64,000 nucleotides of DNA. Source: Deltaproteobacteria bacterium. Its GTDB lineage: Bacteria > Myxococcota_A > Polyangia > Fen-1088. A model generated the notes under the pieces. The model saw only the letters and a list, made by a program, of their open reading frames with translations, had not been told where the DNA came from and searched no databases. Each line of letters begins with the position of its first letter. The first letter of the stretch is position 1. Of the stretch, positions 1 through 10,048 are shown piece after piece. The stretch is taken from positions 480,001 to 544,000 of the forward strand of contig JANRKS010000002.1 of the NCBI GenBank assembly GCA_033763315.1, read 5' to 3'. Position numbers and translations under genes: made by a program.

Positions 1-988
1 CATCACCGCTGATCCGGCAATGCTGCGGATTTTCACGTACCTCGAGGCCGCGTCGAAGGGCTTTCAACCAGTGTTGATCTCGGGCGAGACAGGCACCGGC
101 AAAGAATTGATGGCGCGAGCGCTGCATGAGTCAAGTGGTCGCAAGGGCCCGTTCGTGGCGGTTAACGTTGCCGGCCTTGATGACGAGATGTTTTCCGACA
201 CCTTGTTCGGCCACGTCCCGGGCGCGTTCACCGGCGCCGTGGGAACCCGGAAGGGTATGATCGAAGCGGCCGCCGCAGGCACGTTGTTCCTCGATGAAAT
301 TGGTGATTTGTCGGAAGCGTCGCAGGTGAAGTTGCTGCGTGTTCTGCAAGAGCGCGAGTACCAGCCGCTGGGCGCCGACGTTCTAAAGCCAATGCGCGCG
401 CGGGTCGTGGCGGCCACGAATCGTGCCGCTTCGTCGTTGCGCTCCGACTTGTATTACCGCCTGCGGAGCTACCACATCACGATCCCGCCGTTGCGTGAGC
501 GGGCGGGTGATCTGCGCACATTGCTGGATCACTTCATCCGACTGGCGGCCGAAGACTTGGGCATTGCGGTGCCGGCGTGCCCGCCCGGCTTGCCCGAATT
601 GCTCGATACATATCGGTTCCCGGGCAACATTCGCGAACTGCAAGCGATGGTGTTTCATGCGGTGGCGCAGCAGCGGGGCGGGCAGCTTTTCTTGTCCGCG
701 TTCGAGGAGGCGATGGACCCAGGACAGCGCCGCACGATCCTGCCCGCGCAGCCAGCGCCACCACCTGCGCGCGACCACACGGATGCGATGATGACGTCGC
801 CACCCCGCGAACATGACCTCATCCTTCAGCCCGATGACATTGAACGGCTGGAGCGCGAAAACATCATGCGCGCCCTGGAGAAGACACAATGGAAAGTGGC
901 GGGCAACCAGGGCGCCGCGGCCTTGCTGGGGCTGCGTCCAAGCACCTTGGCTTCCAAGATGAAGAAGATGGGCATCGGACGGGCCTAA
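1..988 (+). CDS. Sigma-54-dependent enhancer-binding transcriptional activator (5'-truncated by window edge), FhlA/HyfR-like C-terminal HTH
   Basis: Walker A GETGTGKE, intact GAFTGA loop, Walker B LFLDEIGD, RVVAATN, DLYYRL, FPGNIREL; C-terminal HTH WKVAG..GAAALLGLRPSTLASKMKKMGI. Frame is open to the window edge. Confidence 0.95.
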   Translation, partial: ITADPAMLRIFTYLEAASKGFQPVLISGETGTGKELMARALHESSGRKGPFVAVNVAGLDDEMFSDTLFGHVPGAFTGAVGTRKGMIEAAAAGTLFLDEIGDLSEASQVKLLRVLQEREYQPLGADVLKPMRARVVAATNRAASSLRSDLYYRLRSYHITIPPLRERAGDLRTLLDHFIRLAAEDLGIAVPACPPGLPELLDTYRFPGNIRELQAMVFHAVAQQRGGQLFLSAFEEAMDPGQRRTILPAQPAPPPARDHTDAMMTSPPREHDLILQPDDIERLERENIMRALEKTQWKVAGNQGAAALLGLRPSTLASKMKKMGIGRA

Positions 989-990
989 GA

Positions 991-1137
991 GGCACGCCAA
1001 CCTGCGGGGTTGCCAGTCCGAGGAGGGCGACCTATCTGAACAAGAACTGCAGTTCAGGGGTCGAGGACGGAGGCAACGGGTGGGTCTTTTTTGTCTTCTC
1101 GGGGGATAAATCTGGTACCCCCGCAGGTCGGTGCACA
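991..1137 (-). ncRNA. Putative sigma-54-dependent structured small RNA (unassigned family)
   Basis: Starts ~12 nt downstream of a canonical -24/-12 box. The 5' end (1134-1112) pairs with the 3' end (1016-992), with a G-U wobble only on the minus strand. Internal hairpin 1028-1063; no ATG on this strand. Confidence 0.6.
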
Positions 1138-1147
1138 ATGACTTCTT

Positions 1148-1164
1148 AGCAACCGGCGTGCCGA
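1148..1164 (-). promoter_or_regulatory. Sigma-54 (-24/-12) promoter
   Basis: Minus strand reads TCGGCACGCCGGTTGCT, giving GG-N10-GC and matching the TGGCACG-N4-TTGCW consensus. Confidence 0.8.
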
Positions 1165-1180
1165 AAAGGTTGCATCGTGT

Positions 1181-1193
1181 TTTCAACCACTTA
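1181..1193. promoter_or_regulatory. Putative IHF binding site
   Basis: TTTCAACCACTTA vs WATCAANNNNTTR (1 mismatch), about 45-57 bp upstream of the predicted sigma-54 start, the usual IHF position. Confidence 0.5.
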
Positions 1194-1216
1194 ACATCCT
1201 GACGCGGTTGCCACCG

Positions 1217-1273
1217 CCACGAATTTTCGTGGATTCACGGAAGTACGCGCTCAGACCCCGCGAAACTCCGTCT
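1217..1273. promoter_or_regulatory. Putative upstream activator sequences for an enhancer-binding protein
   Basis: Near-perfect palindrome CCACGAATTTTCGTGG (1217-1232), plus degenerate copies TCACGGAAGTACGCGC (1235-1250) and CCGCGAAACTCCGTCT (1258-1273), at about -80 to -135. Confidence 0.45.
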
Positions 1274-1307
1274 CCTTGGTTTCTGGTAAGGTTCACAAGC
1301 TCGCGTC

Positions 1308-2045
1308 ATGACGAAATTCAGCGTCAACCTAAATAAGTTTGCCTTGCTGCGTAATTCGCGGGGCCACAATAACCCCGATGTATTGGCCATCGCCCAACGC
1401 TGCGTGACCCGGGGCGTGCATGGGCTAACGGTGCACCCCAGGCCGGACGAGCGACACACACGCTTTGCTGACGTGGCGGCGTTGGCGGCCTTCGTAAAGA
1501 CGCAATCCGGGGTGGAATTTAACGTCGAGGGGTATCCCACGCCCGCGTTTTTGGAGCTGGTGCTGACGACCAAGCCCGACCAGTGCACTTTGGTGCCCGA
1601 TGAACCGGGGCAGTTGACGTCGGACCACGGCTGGGACGCGGTTGCGAAAGCCGAGCAAATCAAGGACGCGGTGAGGACACTGCAGCGGGGTGGCGTTCGC
1701 GTCAGCGTGTTCTTGGACCCGGTGCTAGCGCAAGTGGAGGCCGTGAAGGCCACCGGCACCGATCGCATCGAGCTTTACACAGAGCCGTACGCACGCGCGT
1801 TCGGTCAGCGCGGGCAGGCGGCGGAGCTGGCAAGGTTCGCCGCTGCGGCGAAACACGCAATGGCGCTGGGTATCGGGGTCAACGCCGGTCACGACCTGAA
1901 CCAGGCAAACCTAGGGTCGTTCCTGGACGCCGTTCCGGGCGTGCTTGAGGTCTCGATCGGCCACGCGGTGGTTTGCGAATCCTTCGACCATGGCCTTGAA
2001 GCCACGTTGGACGCGTATTTAGCGATCGTAAACGCCCGCGCTTAA
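1308..2045 (+). CDS. pdxJ: Pyridoxine 5'-phosphate synthase
   Basis: SVNLNKFALLRNSR, GLTVHPRPDERH, FNVEG, TLVPD, TSDHGW, IELYT, NAGHDL, EVSIGH motifs; 245 aa. Confidence 0.96.
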   Translation: MTKFSVNLNKFALLRNSRGHNNPDVLAIAQRCVTRGVHGLTVHPRPDERHTRFADVAALAAFVKTQSGVEFNVEGYPTPAFLELVLTTKPDQCTLVPDEPGQLTSDHGWDAVAKAEQIKDAVRTLQRGGVRVSVFLDPVLAQVEAVKATGTDRIELYTEPYARAFGQRGQAAELARFAAAAKHAMALGIGVNAGHDLNQANLGSFLDAVPGVLEVSIGHAVVCESFDHGLEATLDAYLAIVNARA

Positions 2046-3595
2046 GGCGCGTGGCGAGCCAGGGGCAATTCAAGGGCATCGGCCAACGCCAAGCAGCTGG
2101 CCTCGATGATGTTTTGCGAGACGCCGATGGTGCTCCACCTCTGGTTGCCCATGCCCGTCTCGATCAATACGCGCGTGCTGGCACCCGTGGCGCGCTCGGG
2201 GTCCAAGATGCGCACCTTAAAGTCAACCAAGTGAACCGCCGCAAGGGCGGGGTAAAGCGGATCCAGGGCCTTGTGAAACGCACGATCAAGCGCGTGCACG
2301 GGCCCGGTGCCTTCGGCCACGGTGTGCACTGTTTCGGTGCCCACGCGCAATTTAACCGTGGCTTCAGAAAACATCTCACTGCCGCGGCGTTGTTCCGAGA
2401 TCGCCACCACGTCCAACAGTTCAAAGGGCGCTTGATACCCTGGGCGAAGCTTGCGCACGATGAGCTCGAACGAGCCCTCGGCGGCCTCAAATTGATAGCC
2501 GCGGTTTTCAAGCTCTTTGATGCGCGCCAACACATCCTTCTCGTTGCCACCCAGGTCAGCGCCGATTTCAGCGGCGCGCATCCGCACGTTGCCGCGGCCC
2601 GAAAGCTCCGAAACAACGATCTTGCGGCTGTTGCCCACCTGTTCGGGATTTAGGTGTTCGTAGCTGTGGGTGATCTTTTCCACGGCGGCCACGTGCGCGC
2701 CGCCTTTGTGTGCGAAGGCCGAGCGACCCACATACGGCGCGTGGGCGCGAGGCCTGATGTTGGCGATTTCGGACACCGTGCGGGACAGCTCTGTGAGCTT
2801 GGCCAGCGCTTCGTCAGGCACGCACCTATAGCCCATCTTCAGCTGCAGGGCGGGAATGATGGAGATAAGGTTGGCGTTGCCACAACGTTCGCCCCATCCG
2901 TTCATGGTGCCTTGCACTTGCGTGCACCCAGCCTCAACGGCGGCCAACGCGTTGGCCACGGCGCAGTCTGTATCGTTGTGCGTGTGGATGCCGAGCGGCG
3001 TGCCCAGATGGGCCTTCACGTACGACACCACTTTCGAGATGAAGGTGGGCAAACTGCCGCCGTTGGTGTCGCAAAGTGTGAGCCAGTCGGCCCCGGCTTC
3101 GGCGGCGGCTGCCAAAGCTGCCAAAGCGTACGCGCGATCGGCTTTGTAGCCGTCGAAGAAGTGTTCGGCGTCGTAGATCACCTCTTTGCCAGCCGCTTTC
3201 AGGAACGCCACGCTGCTGCGGATCATCGCGAGGTTTTCGTCGAGGGTGGTGCGCAGGACTTCTGTGACGTGCAGTGGCCAGGATTTGCCATAGATGCACA
3301 CAGCGGGCGTGTGAGCTTGCACCAGCGCTTGCAGGTTCGGATCGGCGGCCGCCTCAATGCCGGCGCGGCGGGTGCTGCCAAACGCCGTGAGTTTCGTTTG
3401 CTGCAACGGCAGCGCGCGCACGCGCTCGAAGTATTCAACGTCTTTAGGGTTCGAGCCCGGATAACCGCCTTCAACGAACGCGATGCCGAACGCGTCGAGA
3501 AGCTTCGTGATCTTGAGCTTGTCCTCCAACGACAGGCTCAACCCTTCGCTTTGGGTGCCATCACGCAAAGTGGTATCGAACAAATGAATTTGCAT
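2042..3595 (-). CDS. cimA: Citramalate synthase (LeuA/CimA DRE-TIM family)
   Basis: DTTLRDGTQ, EGGYPGSNPKD, YDAEHFFDG, LCDTNGG, HTHND, GERCGN, AHKGG and C-terminal regulatory domain. Confidence 0.9.
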   Translation of the reverse strand: MQIHLFDTTLRDGTQSEGLSLSLEDKLKITKLLDAFGIAFVEGGYPGSNPKDVEYFERVRALPLQQTKLTAFGSTRRAGIEAAADPNLQALVQAHTPAVCIYGKSWPLHVTEVLRTTLDENLAMIRSSVAFLKAAGKEVIYDAEHFFDGYKADRAYALAALAAAAEAGADWLTLCDTNGGSLPTFISKVVSYVKAHLGTPLGIHTHNDTDCAVANALAAVEAGCTQVQGTMNGWGERCGNANLISIIPALQLKMGYRCVPDEALAKLTELSRTVSEIANIRPRAHAPYVGRSAFAHKGGAHVAAVEKITHSYEHLNPEQVGNSRKIVVSELSGRGNVRMRAAEIGADLGGNEKDVLARIKELENRGYQFEAAEGSFELIVRKLRPGYQAPFELLDVVAISEQRRGSEMFSEATVKLRVGTETVHTVAEGTGPVHALDRAFHKALDPLYPALAAVHLVDFKVRILDPERATGASTRVLIETGMGNQRWSTIGVSQNIIEASCLALADALELPLARHAP

Positions 3596-3618
3596 GACGG
3601 CCCCGGCAGTCGTGACGT

Positions 3619-4956
3619 TTATGGTTGATCCAAAATGCGGCGAACGGCGTCGCGCACGTCGTTGTAGCTGTTGGGCAGCATGATGGGCTCGTTCGCAAAC
3701 TTCGGATCCGCCACCGCGCCCAAGCGACGTTCATGGTACGCCACTTTGAAATCCGTGAACTTCAATCCGTTGGCTGTGCTGATCACCACCACCGATTGAT
3801 CTTTGCGAATGAGCCCACGTGCCACAAGTTTTTCAAGTGCGGCCAAAGCCACGCCGGTGTGAGGGCAACAGAACATACCCGTGCGATCGGCGCGTGCGGC
3901 CGCGTCGGCCAGTTCGGCTTCGGAGGCTTGCTCCACCACGCCATCAAATTGTTTGAGTGCGCGGATCGCTTTGTCGCGGCTGATCGGGTTGCCGATCTGG
4001 ATCGCGGACGCCAAGGTGGTCTTGGGCACCATCGATTCGAATTTCTCGTAGCCGGATAAATACGACTGATAAAGTGGATTTGCGTGCTCGGCTTGTGCCA
4101 CGCAAATGCGCGGCATTTTGTTGATGATGCCGAGCTCCTTCATGAGGTTAAAGCCCGCGCCCAACGCGCTGACGTTGCCCAAGTTGCCGCCGGGTATGAT
4201 GAGCCAATCGGGCACCTTCCACTCGAACTGCTGGCAGATCTCGATGCCCACGGTCTTTTGCCCCTCAAGGCGCAGCGAGTTCATGCTGTTGGCAAGGTAC
4301 ACGCCTTCTTCGGCCGCCAACCTTTGCACCACGGCCATGCAATCGTCGAAGTTGCCGTCGAGGGCCAGCACCTTGGCGCCGTTGGCCAGCGGTTGCACAA
4401 GCTGCGCGGTGGAAATCTTTCCATGCGGCAAGATCACCAATGATCGCACACCGGCGGCGGCGCAATAGGCGGCCAGTGCCGCGGAGGTGTCGCCCGTGGA
4501 GGCGCACGCCACGGCCGAAACATTTTTGCCGTCGGCCATCATCTGTTTGACCACCGACACGAGCACGGTCATGCCTAGGTCCTTAAACGATCCCGTGTGG
4601 GAGTTACCGCAGAGTTTGATCCACAGATCTTCGACGCCGATCTGGCTGCCGTAGCGCTGGGCCCAAAACAGGTTCGATCCGCCTTCGTACATCGAGACCA
4701 CGTTCTCGTCGCGGATGCCGGGGTGCACCCACTCGCGCTTGCCCCACACGCCCGACCCAAACGGCCATTCGGTGCCCAGGTATCGAGACTCGAACAGCTT
4801 CATCCACTGCCAGGCGCTGCGCTGTTTGAGCGCTTCGGTGTCGTGCCGCACTTCCAGCAATCCATTGCAGGTGGGGCAGCGGTAAATCACTTCGTCGAGC
4901 GCCCATTCTCCGGCACAACCAGAGGAACATTTGAATACGGCGCGAAATGGCTTCAT
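3619..4956 (-). CDS. thrC: Threonine synthase (plant-type clade, N-terminal CxxxC/CxxC)
   Basis: HTGSFKD PLP lysine, [29 protein letters not shown]; start placed at ATG 4956 (MKPFRAVF). Confidence 0.95.
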
Positions 4957-8734: not shown

Positions 8735-10048
8735 TTGGGCAGCGATATCGCAAAGAAAGTGGTCATTCTCGGTGGCGGCTTAACCGGAATCTCGGCGGCC
8801 ATGCACTTGCGCCTGCCGTGGGTGTTATTTGAAAAGGAGGCACGCCTGGGTGGCCACGCGCGCACCGACGAACGCCAAGGTTATCTGTTCGATAAGACCG
8901 GCCATTGGCTTCACCTGCGTGACCCGGCGGTGAAGAAATTGGTGGCCGACGTGCTGCCCGACCAAATGCAATCGGTGCAGCGCGTGGCGCGTGTTTTCTC
9001 CAATGGCGTCCTCACGCGGTACCCGTTTCAAGCCAACTTGCACGGTTTGCCCCCCGATGTGATTCACGAGTGCTTGATGGGCGTCATCGAAGCCAAGCTC
9101 AAAGGCGACGTGGGTGATGAGCCACGCGACTTCGAGGACTACTGCTTGCGCCACTTCGGTGCCGGCATCTCGAAGCACTTCATGATTCCCTACAACGAAC
9201 GTTTGTGGGGTGTCTCGCCCAAAGACATCACAGCGGCATGGTGCTCGCGCTTTGTGCCGTTACCCAACTTGGAGCAAATCGTGGCGGGGGCTGTGGGCGC
9301 AGGCCCAGGCGAGATGGGCTACAACGTGAGTTTCGTGTACCCCAAGCACGGCGGCATCGAGACGTTCACCAAGGCGCTGATCAGCCGCGTGGATCCTGCG
9401 GGCGTCAACATGGGCACAAGCCCTGACGTCATCGATTACGAAAAGCGCGAGATTGAAGTGGGTGGCGAGCGTATTCCCTACCGCGCGTTGGTGGCCACCA
9501 TACCGCTGCCGGAATTGCTCAAGCGCATGCCCAACTTGCCGCCTGAAATCGAAAAGCATGCGGCCAATTTACGCTGCACGACGTTGCAGTATCTGAACCT
9601 GGCCACGCGCAAGAAGAGCCCCGCGGATTGGCATTGGATCTATGTGCCAGAAAAGAAGTACCCGTTTTACCGGGTGGGTATCTTTACCAACGCGATGCCG
9701 AGTATGGCCCCAAGCGGTACGTCGTCGTTTTATGTGGAGCTGGCCGATCGCGCGGCGATCACGGACATCAACGCGGTCACACGGCAGTGCGCGCAGGGTT
9801 TGGTGGAAGCGGGCGCACTGACATCAACGGACGACGTGTTGTTCGCAGATCCGAAAGAGATCAAGTACGCGTACGTGATCTTCGATCACAACTATTATCC
9901 GGCCACCACAGCCATTTTTCGCTTCCTTGAATCGCACGGCATTTACCCGCGCGGCCGCTATGGCGCGTGGACCTATAACGCCATGGAAGACTGCGTGATC
10001 GCGGGCCGCGAAGTTGCGGCCACCATTGAAGCTGCCTACGGAGATTAA
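8735..10048 (+). CDS. FAD-dependent oxidoreductase, resembling eukaryote-type UDP-galactopyranose mutase
   Basis: GGGLTG..EK..RLGG Rossmann fold, FDKTGHWLH, YPFQAN, PYNERLWG, WIYVPE..PFYR, RGRYGAWTY. Confidence 0.75.
   Translation: MGSDIAKKVVILGGGLTGISAAMHLRLPWVLFEKEARLGGHARTDERQGYLFDKTGHWLHLRDPAVKKLVADVLPDQMQSVQRVARVFSNGVLTRYPFQANLHGLPPDVIHECLMGVIEAKLKGDVGDEPRDFEDYCLRHFGAGISKHFMIPYNERLWGVSPKDITAAWCSRFVPLPNLEQIVAGAVGAGPGEMGYNVSFVYPKHGGIETFTKALISRVDPAGVNMGTSPDVIDYEKREIEVGGERIPYRALVATIPLPELLKRMPNLPPEIEKHAANLRCTTLQYLNLATRKKSPADWHWIYVPEKKYPFYRVGIFTNAMPSMAPSGTSSFYVELADRAAITDINAVTRQCAQGLVEAGALTSTDDVLFADPKEIKYAYVIFDHNYYPATTAIFRFLESHGIYPRGRYGAWTYNAMEDCVIAGREVAATIEAAYGD

Follow-up and report, generated by a model that had tools for sequence, protein, structure and literature searches.

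We analysed a window of 64,000 nt from a Deltaproteobacteria bacterium (Bacteria; Myxococcota_A; Polyangia; Fen-1088), corresponding to positions 480,001 to 544,000 of contig JANRKS010000002.1 in GenBank assembly GCA_033763315.1. The window opens within a gene for a sigma-54 activator of the NtrC type, which is followed, after a gap of 320 nt, by pdxJ. Judging from sequence comparisons, this gap very probably holds the gene of a non-coding RNA of ~150 bases, read on the minus strand towards the activator gene and switched on by the adjacent activator. An earlier reading of the same DNA, made from its letters only (the sequence-only reading), had proposed a small RNA (sRNA) here as the output of the activator, acting as a protein sponge, by anti-Shine-Dalgarno (anti-SD) base pairing or as an antisense feedback loop. 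All the features that it had listed are found at the positions it had given. The co-occurrence of RNA and activator, the palindrome they share and the block-wise conservation of the region support the first part of that proposal, but none of the three mechanisms is settled.

Our comparison draws on three homologous sequences, all from uncultured organisms: the genome under study (G000; 7.6 Mb, 90.85% complete), a congeneric genome (G002) and a homologous locus on a metagenome contig (L066). BLASTN searches with the gap against 61 related genomes matched only G000 itself and G002, the latter at 73% identity over promoter and RNA, while L066 was located in a metagenome scan with a 20-nt pattern taken from the most conserved stretch. 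The blocks described below are kept in both relatives, and the conservation of promoter and structure for which the sequence-only reading had called is thus observed.

Upstream of the predicted RNA lies a -24/-12 box of the sigma-54 type (Table 1), which can also be given as cGGCACgccggTTGCt at 1163-1148 and fits both GG-N10-GC and a TGGCAC-N5-TTGC-like pattern; the three homologues share GGCACGC-N-GTTGC. The -12 spacing places the predicted +1 near 1137. As no gaps separate the box from the first helix of the RNA in the three-sequence alignment, this predicted start always coincides with the base of the closing helix, in agreement with the earlier placement of the +1 (~1137) at the 5' end of a long stem. 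The IHF-like (integration host factor) site, at about -44 to -57 where about -50 had been suggested, is invariant at its consensus positions (TTTCAA....TTA) and occupies the same place in all three homologues, with variation confined to the intervening N4 (CCAC, GCAC and GGAC). Genome-wide, a relaxed form of this pattern occurs at 0.06 per kb.

The proximal palindrome, CCACGAATTTTCGTGG at 1217-1232, forms a 7-nt inverted repeat with a 2-nt spacer and, as CACGAA-NN-TTCGTG, has no mismatches in any of the three homologues. Its two degenerate copies are found at equivalent positions in L066; for G002, three mismatches or fewer are seen at the distal one alone. The 7.6-Mb genome holds two exact sites versus 0.35 expected, the other of which lies inside a long open reading frame (ORF) with no sigma-54-like box within 400 nt, and the background in one megabase amounts to 0, 2, 17 and 131 sites with 0, 1, 2 and 3 mismatches, respectively. 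The sequence-only reading had recognised both the canonical box, which is kept in G002 and L066, and the palindrome with two degenerate copies. With the palindromes at -81 to -135 and the IHF-like site between them and the box, the region matches the layout of sigma-54 upstream activator sites (~80-150 nt).

The region has diverged very unevenly. Fourfold-degenerate sites in the activator gene and pdxJ are saturated (pairwise identity 31-39%), and the spacers between the blocks share 18-57% identity, except for one at 82% (G000 versus L066). The corresponding values are 81-86% for the -24/-12 block, 88% for the IHF-like block, 74-87% for the palindrome block, 70-86% for the RNA body and 92-100% for the 26 columns around a C-rich 22-mer within it. 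To judge from these figures, recent common ancestry cannot explain the block-wise conservation, and the pattern is the expected trace of a sigma-54 promoter with an enhancer, a bend site and a functional transcript.

Folded on the minus strand, the RNA reaches -59.6 kcal/mol (z -4.58), a value matched by 0 of 200 shuffles. Its structure was written by hand on the three-sequence alignment (P1a, P1b, P2, P3, P4a and P4b; 37 pairs), and 95.3% of the cells hold standard pairs, as compared with 23-42% after a shift of the partners by 1-3 columns. The closing helix P1 comprises 17 pairs (94% of cells paired in the three sequences), four of which carry one-sided G-U/A-U or U-G/C-G changes, and its 3' arm is followed by CUCUUA in G000, CUUUUUUA in G002 and CUUUCA in L066. 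The C-rich 22-mer is mostly unpaired, with mean unpaired probabilities of 0.60, 0.70 and 0.48 in the three homologues. The internal hairpin that had been proposed is present as P4; in its inner stem, two pairs have changed in a compensatory way (A-U to G-C) and a third from G-C to G-U. The anti-SD-like segments CCUCC and CCCUCCU, which had been singled out in G000, are invariant in all three homologues; an A-rich tract singled out along with them is present in G000 but shortened or altered in the homologues, and is thus not conserved.

Pairing and folding both favour the minus strand, as had been proposed on the basis of G-U pairs. Standard pairs occupy 102 of 107 cells on this strand versus 94 of 107 on the plus strand, where eight G-U cells turn into A-C mismatches, and the folding z-scores of the three homologues are -4.44, -4.13 and -2.29 for the RNA strand versus -3.76, -3.05 and -0.32 for the opposite strand. 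The minus strand has no ATG in 989-1140, as noted before, and there is no ORF conserved across the three homologues, since no frame keeps its start or phase. Searched with cmscan against Rfam at E <= 10, both as part of 1-4000 and as a 361-nt segment (960-1320), the RNA body matched no family, Pxr included, which agrees with the earlier failure to place it in one. Weak Rfam matches elsewhere, to MIR4374 (E 0.47), CRISPR-DR20 (E 1.3) and Ms_IGR-8 (11.1 bits versus a gathering score of 44), are unrelated. In a collection of genome contigs the exact 22-mer has no match. A gap pattern built on the P1 arms gave five matches there, which we attribute to chance: they are GC-rich, probably coding, come from distant phyla and lack the 22-mer, and the RNA covariance model finds nothing meaningful at them.

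At the 3' side of the RNA, the closing helix abuts the activator stop codon in G000 and L066, whereas in G002 the two are kept apart by an additional palindromic hairpin, GTGCCT-TTTT-AGGCAC, and a T-run (L002 1672-1700), neither of which the other two homologues possess. The predicted RNA body ends 3 nt from the activator stop in G000, 4-5 nt from it in L066 and about 27 nt from it in G002.

Table 1. Features of the activator-RNA-pdxJ region in G000. Plain numbers are window positions; L006 is G000 DNA that includes the sequence before the window start (L006 9314-9329 = G000 C2:479314-479329).
Feature	Position	Strand	Remarks
Second sigma-54-like box	L006 9314-9329	-	Faces the REC-HDOD gene; before window start
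Upstream palindromes	L006 9463-9476, 9483-9496		Immediately before the activator start codon
Activator gene, 5' end	L006 about 9495-9531	+	Before window start
Sigma-54 activator gene, 3' part	1..988	+	NtrC-type: REC, AAA+ with GAFTGA, Fis-type helix-turn-helix (HTH)
Predicted non-coding RNA, ~149 nt	989..1137	-	5' end inferred from -12 spacing; 3' end uncertain
P1 closing helix, 3' arm	992..1009	-	Pairs with 1119-1136
Second C-rich motif CCCUCCUCGG	1018..1027	-	Invariant; 3' half is the P3 3' arm
P4 variable hairpin	1028..1063	-	Loop length varies
C-rich 22-mer GACCCACCCGUUGCCUCCGUCC, candidate seed	1065..1086	-	Invariant in three homologues; contains anti-SD-like CCUCC
P1 closing helix, 5' arm	1119..1136	-	Pairs with 992-1009
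Sigma-54 type -24/-12 box CGGCACGCCGGTTGCT	1163-1148	-	GG 1162-1161, GC 1150-1149, 10-nt spacing
IHF-like site TTTCAACCACTTA (plus-strand reading)	1181-1194	-	TTTCAA-N4-TTA on plus strand; about -44 to -57
Proximal putative activator site	1218-1231		CACGAA-NN-TTCGTG, 0 mismatches; -81 to -94
Two degenerate palindrome copies	1236-1249, 1259-1272		3 mismatches each; reach -135
pdxJ	1308..2045	+	Pfam PdxJ 2e-79; flanking gene, outside the RNA unit

The link between the RNA and its neighbour is first of all one of distribution. An RNA covariance model matched two of 89 genomes of the family, and a second model matched one of 151 genomes of the class, G000 itself. Among 41 family genomes an orthologue of the activator occurs in G002 only (77% identity), all other matches being at most 45% identical, and of 14 pdxJ loci, those of G000 and G002 are the only two in which activator and box precede pdxJ. 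Nine homologues of the activator at class level (46-52% identity) were considered as possible carriers of the RNA and rejected, since they differ in the C-terminal HTH and have no matching RNA; the second covariance model scores at most 10.1 bits at these nine distant loci and at two loci of G001, a third species of the genus. As far as these sequences tell, activator and RNA occur only together among the genomes examined.

The palindrome provides a second line of evidence. Tandem copies of it, at a distance of 20 bp, directly precede the activator gene in all three loci (mismatches 0 and 1 in G002, 2 and 3 in G000, and 2, 3 and 3 in L066) and lie 150-170 nt upstream of a second, conserved sigma-54-like box. 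This second box conforms to TGGCAT-N5-(C/G)TGCT (TGGCATGCCCCCTGCT in G000, TGGCATGCCTAGTGCT in G002 and TGGCATGACCCCTGCT in L066). Box and palindromes together suggest co-activation of the REC-HDOD gene and autoregulation of the activator. The closest outgroup activator, from a metagenome-assembled genome (MAG) of the Thermoanaerobaculia, is 54% identical and has a similar C-terminal HTH. Downstream of it lie CCCGAATTTTCGTG, a palindrome with one mismatch, and then TGGCGTCCCGCTTGCG, a sigma-54 box followed 13 nt later by a GGDEF-EAL gene. Since the palindrome is found both at the second box and at the target promoter of the outgroup activator, it ties the RNA to the adjacent activator. It appears from these occurrences that the palindrome travels with this activator subfamily and marks two sigma-54 promoters in the Polyangia, and we infer that the palindromes are what the activator binds. 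The whole outgroup locus (L073 27-5416) has a classical layout of PAS histidine kinase, activator, palindrome copy, sigma-54 box and GGDEF-EAL gene, the same control design there serving a protein-coding target.

Completed with the DNA upstream of the window, the activator gene encodes 497 aa with the Pfam domains Sigma54_activat (1.1e-49), Response_reg (3.9e-24) and HTH_8 (9.3e-07), and GAFTGA can be read in the translation; its orthologues share 77% (G002) and 80.7% (L066) identity. The genome also encodes RpoN (Sigma54_DBD at 219 bits) and has seven genes of the HU/IHF family. In G000 the gene order is gltB, gltD, the REC-HDOD gene on the minus strand, the activator gene on the plus strand, the RNA on the minus strand and pdxJ; G002 has the same order, spread over two contigs, and likewise a distance of 145 nt between the sigma-54 box and the pdxJ start. 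Common to G000, G002 and L066 is the succession of the activator gene and the RNA facing each other, followed by pdxJ and, facing it, a citramalate/isopropylmalate-synthase-like gene. For L066, knowledge of the REC-HDOD gene is limited to the 455 nt that directly precede the activator. In G001, pdxJ comes directly after a frame that ends in the same C-terminal residues as the gltD product of G000, and the best match to REC-HDOD is a 30% paralogue only. Because a gltD-like frame thus stands beside pdxJ in G001, the RNA, the activator and REC-HDOD seem to be gained or lost as one block of ~3.3 kb. By this comparison, the RNA, the activator and the divergent REC-HDOD gene with its own sigma-54 box make up a single module between gltD and pdxJ.

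There is no histidine kinase gene beside the activator at the module. Between the second sigma-54 box and REC-HDOD, a frame of 103 codons on the minus strand (L006 8985-9296) has a kinase-like H-box, RLIHDLNNVLTV, and scores 17.7 bits against Pfam HisKA, below the cut-off of 26.9. L066 has a similar frame, with RLIHDLNNALTV recognised by eye, and G002 lacks it. The frame may represent what is left of a kinase, or else encode a small phosphotransfer protein.

The explanation that we favour is that of a lineage-specific sRNA gene of about 130-155 nt on the minus strand, running from ~1137 to ~989. Sigma-54 RNA polymerase would transcribe it from the -24/-12 box, most likely activated by the adjacent NtrC-type response regulator at the CACGAA-NN-TTCGTG palindromes, with the DNA bent at the IHF-like site. 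In the transcript, a long helix (P1-P3) would join the 5' and 3' ends and enclose the variable hairpin and the two C-rich stretches. These stretches may pair with G-rich ribosome-binding regions of mRNAs made elsewhere, and pairing would lower the translation of those targets. We consider the whole explanation, from the sRNA and its activator to the C-rich stretches and the module, to be reasonably probable. Base pairing in trans with ribosome-binding regions is the most likely mode of action, which we put forward tentatively. It is favoured because a purely antisense or purely structural RNA needs no invariant 22-mer, and neutral sites are saturated.

A number of results weigh against this explanation. 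The promoter box is not exceptional by itself: GGCAC-N5-TTGC occurs 117 times in the G000 genome against ~90 expected, and the stricter GGCACG-N4-TTGCW 10 times against ~11, both expectations being estimates from base composition. As this is about the frequency of chance, the box alone is insignificant and could be fortuitous, and the weight of the case rests on the comparison with relatives. Support from covariation, a further check called for by the sequence-only reading, is modest to weak with three sequences: only the two compensatory pairs, both in the inner stem of P4, differ in both partners, and the covariation score is attained in 47 of 500 shuffles of the columns. The helices P1-P3 neither prove nor disprove pairing, because they hardly vary (20 of their 26 pairs never do). 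Moreover, the terminator scan found no terminator at the end of the RNA, and a clear U-run after P1 is present in G002 only.

The search for targets adds to these points. Neither the leader of the REC-HDOD operon, where 0.38, 0.70 and 0.41 of shuffles were as good or better, nor the start regions of pdxJ (p > 0.8) pair with the seed better than expected by chance. In G000 the seed (window 1065-1088) forms a duplex of -34.2 kcal/mol, in three segments, with activator codons 2-10 (L006 9534-9562; p = 0.0004 versus 5000 random windows), but the same site yields -16.8 kcal/mol in G002 (p = 0.37) and -15.8 kcal/mol in L066 (p = 0.51). The complementarity is thus confined to G000, and reflects either chance or a young feedback loop. 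A search for perfect 11- to 13-mer complements of the seed returned 22 non-self 12-mer matches, against an estimated ~10-20 by chance, with no convincing gene among those near start codons. A crude genome-wide duplex screen, in which start-codon calling was unreliable, gave 3664 sites of -24 kcal/mol or lower, including 269 close to putative starts, and none that stood out. Among the genes of the module these comparisons revealed no conserved target. The anti-SD mechanism of the sequence-only reading fits the invariant C-rich stretch, but no conserved target emerged for it. One of the 12-nt perfect complements, at G000 C11:118105 on the minus strand, immediately precedes the likely start of a frame of 195 residues, which resembles an extracytoplasmic function (ECF) sigma factor by eye; it is one of ~20 such 12-mers genome-wide and may be due to chance.

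The RNA might instead act in cis, with no targets elsewhere. Convergent transcription would then exert negative feedback on the activator, either through polymerase collision or through pairing with the 3' end of the activator mRNA, which would cross the RNA gene and possibly extend into pdxJ. All three loci show the same convergence, with the RNA gene approaching the activator stop to within the distances given above, and the terminator scan detects no terminator-like site on the plus strand between that stop and pdxJ; in addition, the RNA has no strong terminator in G000 and L066. Read-through into the activator gene may occur. However, a purely antisense RNA needs no particular sequence, any change in one strand being mirrored in the other, yet the 22-mer and the 10-mer are invariant where neutral sites are saturated. 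Antisense action would require read-through, given that the predicted RNA body overlaps no coding sequence, and in G002 the U-run and the extra hairpin separate the RNA from the activator gene. We regard action solely in cis as unlikely.

Titration of a protein, with either the P1-P3 rod or the C-rich loops as the platform, is another of the mechanisms raised by the sequence-only reading. Pairing alone would not demand so nearly invariant a sequence as that of P1-P3, and a bound protein could account for it. The known types of sponge do not fit, however: a single GGA motif in 152 nt speaks against a decoy of the CsrA/RsmA type, and the unconserved A-rich tract, together with the lack of any match to Pfam Hfq in the G000 genome (90.85% complete), speaks against one of the CrcZ type. 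Rfam likewise gives no match to 6S or any other decoy RNA, and no partner protein is indicated. We consider a sponge quite unlikely.

It is very unlikely that the plus strand is the one on which the structure functions, be it as 3' untranslated region (UTR) or terminator of the activator mRNA or as leader of pdxJ, with the box on the minus strand being incidental. The plus strand does fold stably in G000 and G002 (-67.8 kcal/mol, z -3.51), and the box pattern alone is at chance frequency. Against this stand the eight A-C mismatches noted above, the z-score of -0.32 in L066 and the conservation of box, IHF-like site and palindromes in the order and spacing of a sigma-54 promoter on the minus strand. 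Furthermore, the element follows the activator rather than pdxJ, being absent from 12 of 14 pdxJ loci, and no T-run comes after the structure on the plus strand. A small protein, for which the GTG at the predicted +1 offers a leaderless frame of 34 codons in G000 (1136-1032), hardly comes into consideration, as G002 and L066 do not retain this GTG, the frame is displaced from one homologue to the next by indels of 5, 4 and 1 nt, and there is no ATG.

Small RNAs as the output of a sigma-54 promoter and an NtrC-type activator are established in Qrr/LuxO of Vibrio, CrcZ/CbrB of Pseudomonas and GlmY/GlrR-QseF of Enterobacteria. Such sRNA genes often lie beside the activator gene, and the Qrr RNAs feed back on luxO mRNA. 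The RNA described here matches none of Qrr, CrcZ and GlmY in Rfam, repeated A-rich or GGA motifs are absent from it, and its genome yielded no Hfq gene; its predicted pairing with the activator mRNA, which would correspond to the feedback on luxO, is confined to G000. As regards the C-rich stretches, the CcsR or 'cuckoo' RNAs of Rhodobacter carry CCUCCUCCC loops, and RsaE and RNAIII of Staphylococcus carry C-rich motifs. In these C-rich anti-SD sRNAs, unpaired motifs of the CCUCC type are able to pair with ribosome-binding sites. The likeness to our RNA, in which CCUCC and CCCUCCU are invariant, would be one of function; the motif of those RNAs is displayed in hairpin loops, they depend on other sigma factors, and none is matched through Rfam.

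The closest known system, from the same phylum, is Pxr/Nla19 of Myxococcus xanthus, described as a structured sRNA gene with a predicted sigma-54 promoter that adjoins the NtrC-type activator gene nla19 (PMC5568312), traits shared by our locus. In that description, pxr is downstream of nla19 behind an intergenic region of 262 nt, and lies between nla19 and the NADH-dehydrogenase/pxrA genes (PMC5568312), whereas the RNA in our window converges with its activator and has pdxJ as its other neighbour. Pxr is depicted as a fold of three stem-loops, SL1-SL3 (PMC5684412), as opposed to a 5'-3' closing helix with an internal loop and a hairpin. The account in PMC11928866 gives pxr as reported only from the Cystobacterineae, within which it arose, and the direct targets of Pxr as unknown; our RNA occurs in the Polyangia. 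With these differences, and without a match to the Pxr Rfam model at E <= 10, it is not a member of the Pxr family. In Desulfovibrio vulgaris, an unrelated organism that we compare by description, the response regulator DVU0679 has as its mapped target Dv_sRNA2, downstream of its own gene; as that report puts it, the binding motif is conserved beside orthologues and the function of Dv_sRNA2 is unknown (PMC3333781). What it shares with our locus is a regulator gene beside an sRNA gene that is its target there and its probable target here.

Our literature search found no description of the RNA reported here, nor of any sigma-54 sRNA in Polyangia or Sorangium. To our knowledge, a handful of sigma-54 activators have an sRNA as a direct output (Pxr, Qrr, CrcZ, GlmY and a Desulfovibrio sRNA), and among the sigma-54 sRNAs of myxobacteria Pxr alone has been studied. 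The arrangement itself is thus already known; what the locus adds is a probable sRNA of the same arrangement, unrelated to Pxr, in the Polyangia. Its distribution is narrow, at three sequences from uncultured organisms. Its control region is unusually complete and conserved, with palindromes, IHF-like site and -24/-12 box, and the sister promoter in the module makes the wiring from activator to RNA testable with few constructs.

A wider evolutionary scenario may also be considered, although we think it unlikely as a whole. An ancestral two-component module would have kept its activator, palindrome and promoter design, while its protein target was replaced by the RNA and REC-HDOD; the RNA, through its two anti-SD motifs, would act as a broad translational regulator in signalling of the second-messenger type, with feedback on the activator mRNA in G000. 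If this is true, the sRNA would owe its origin to an enhancer-dependent promoter that already existed, and would be one of only two outputs of an orphan activator.

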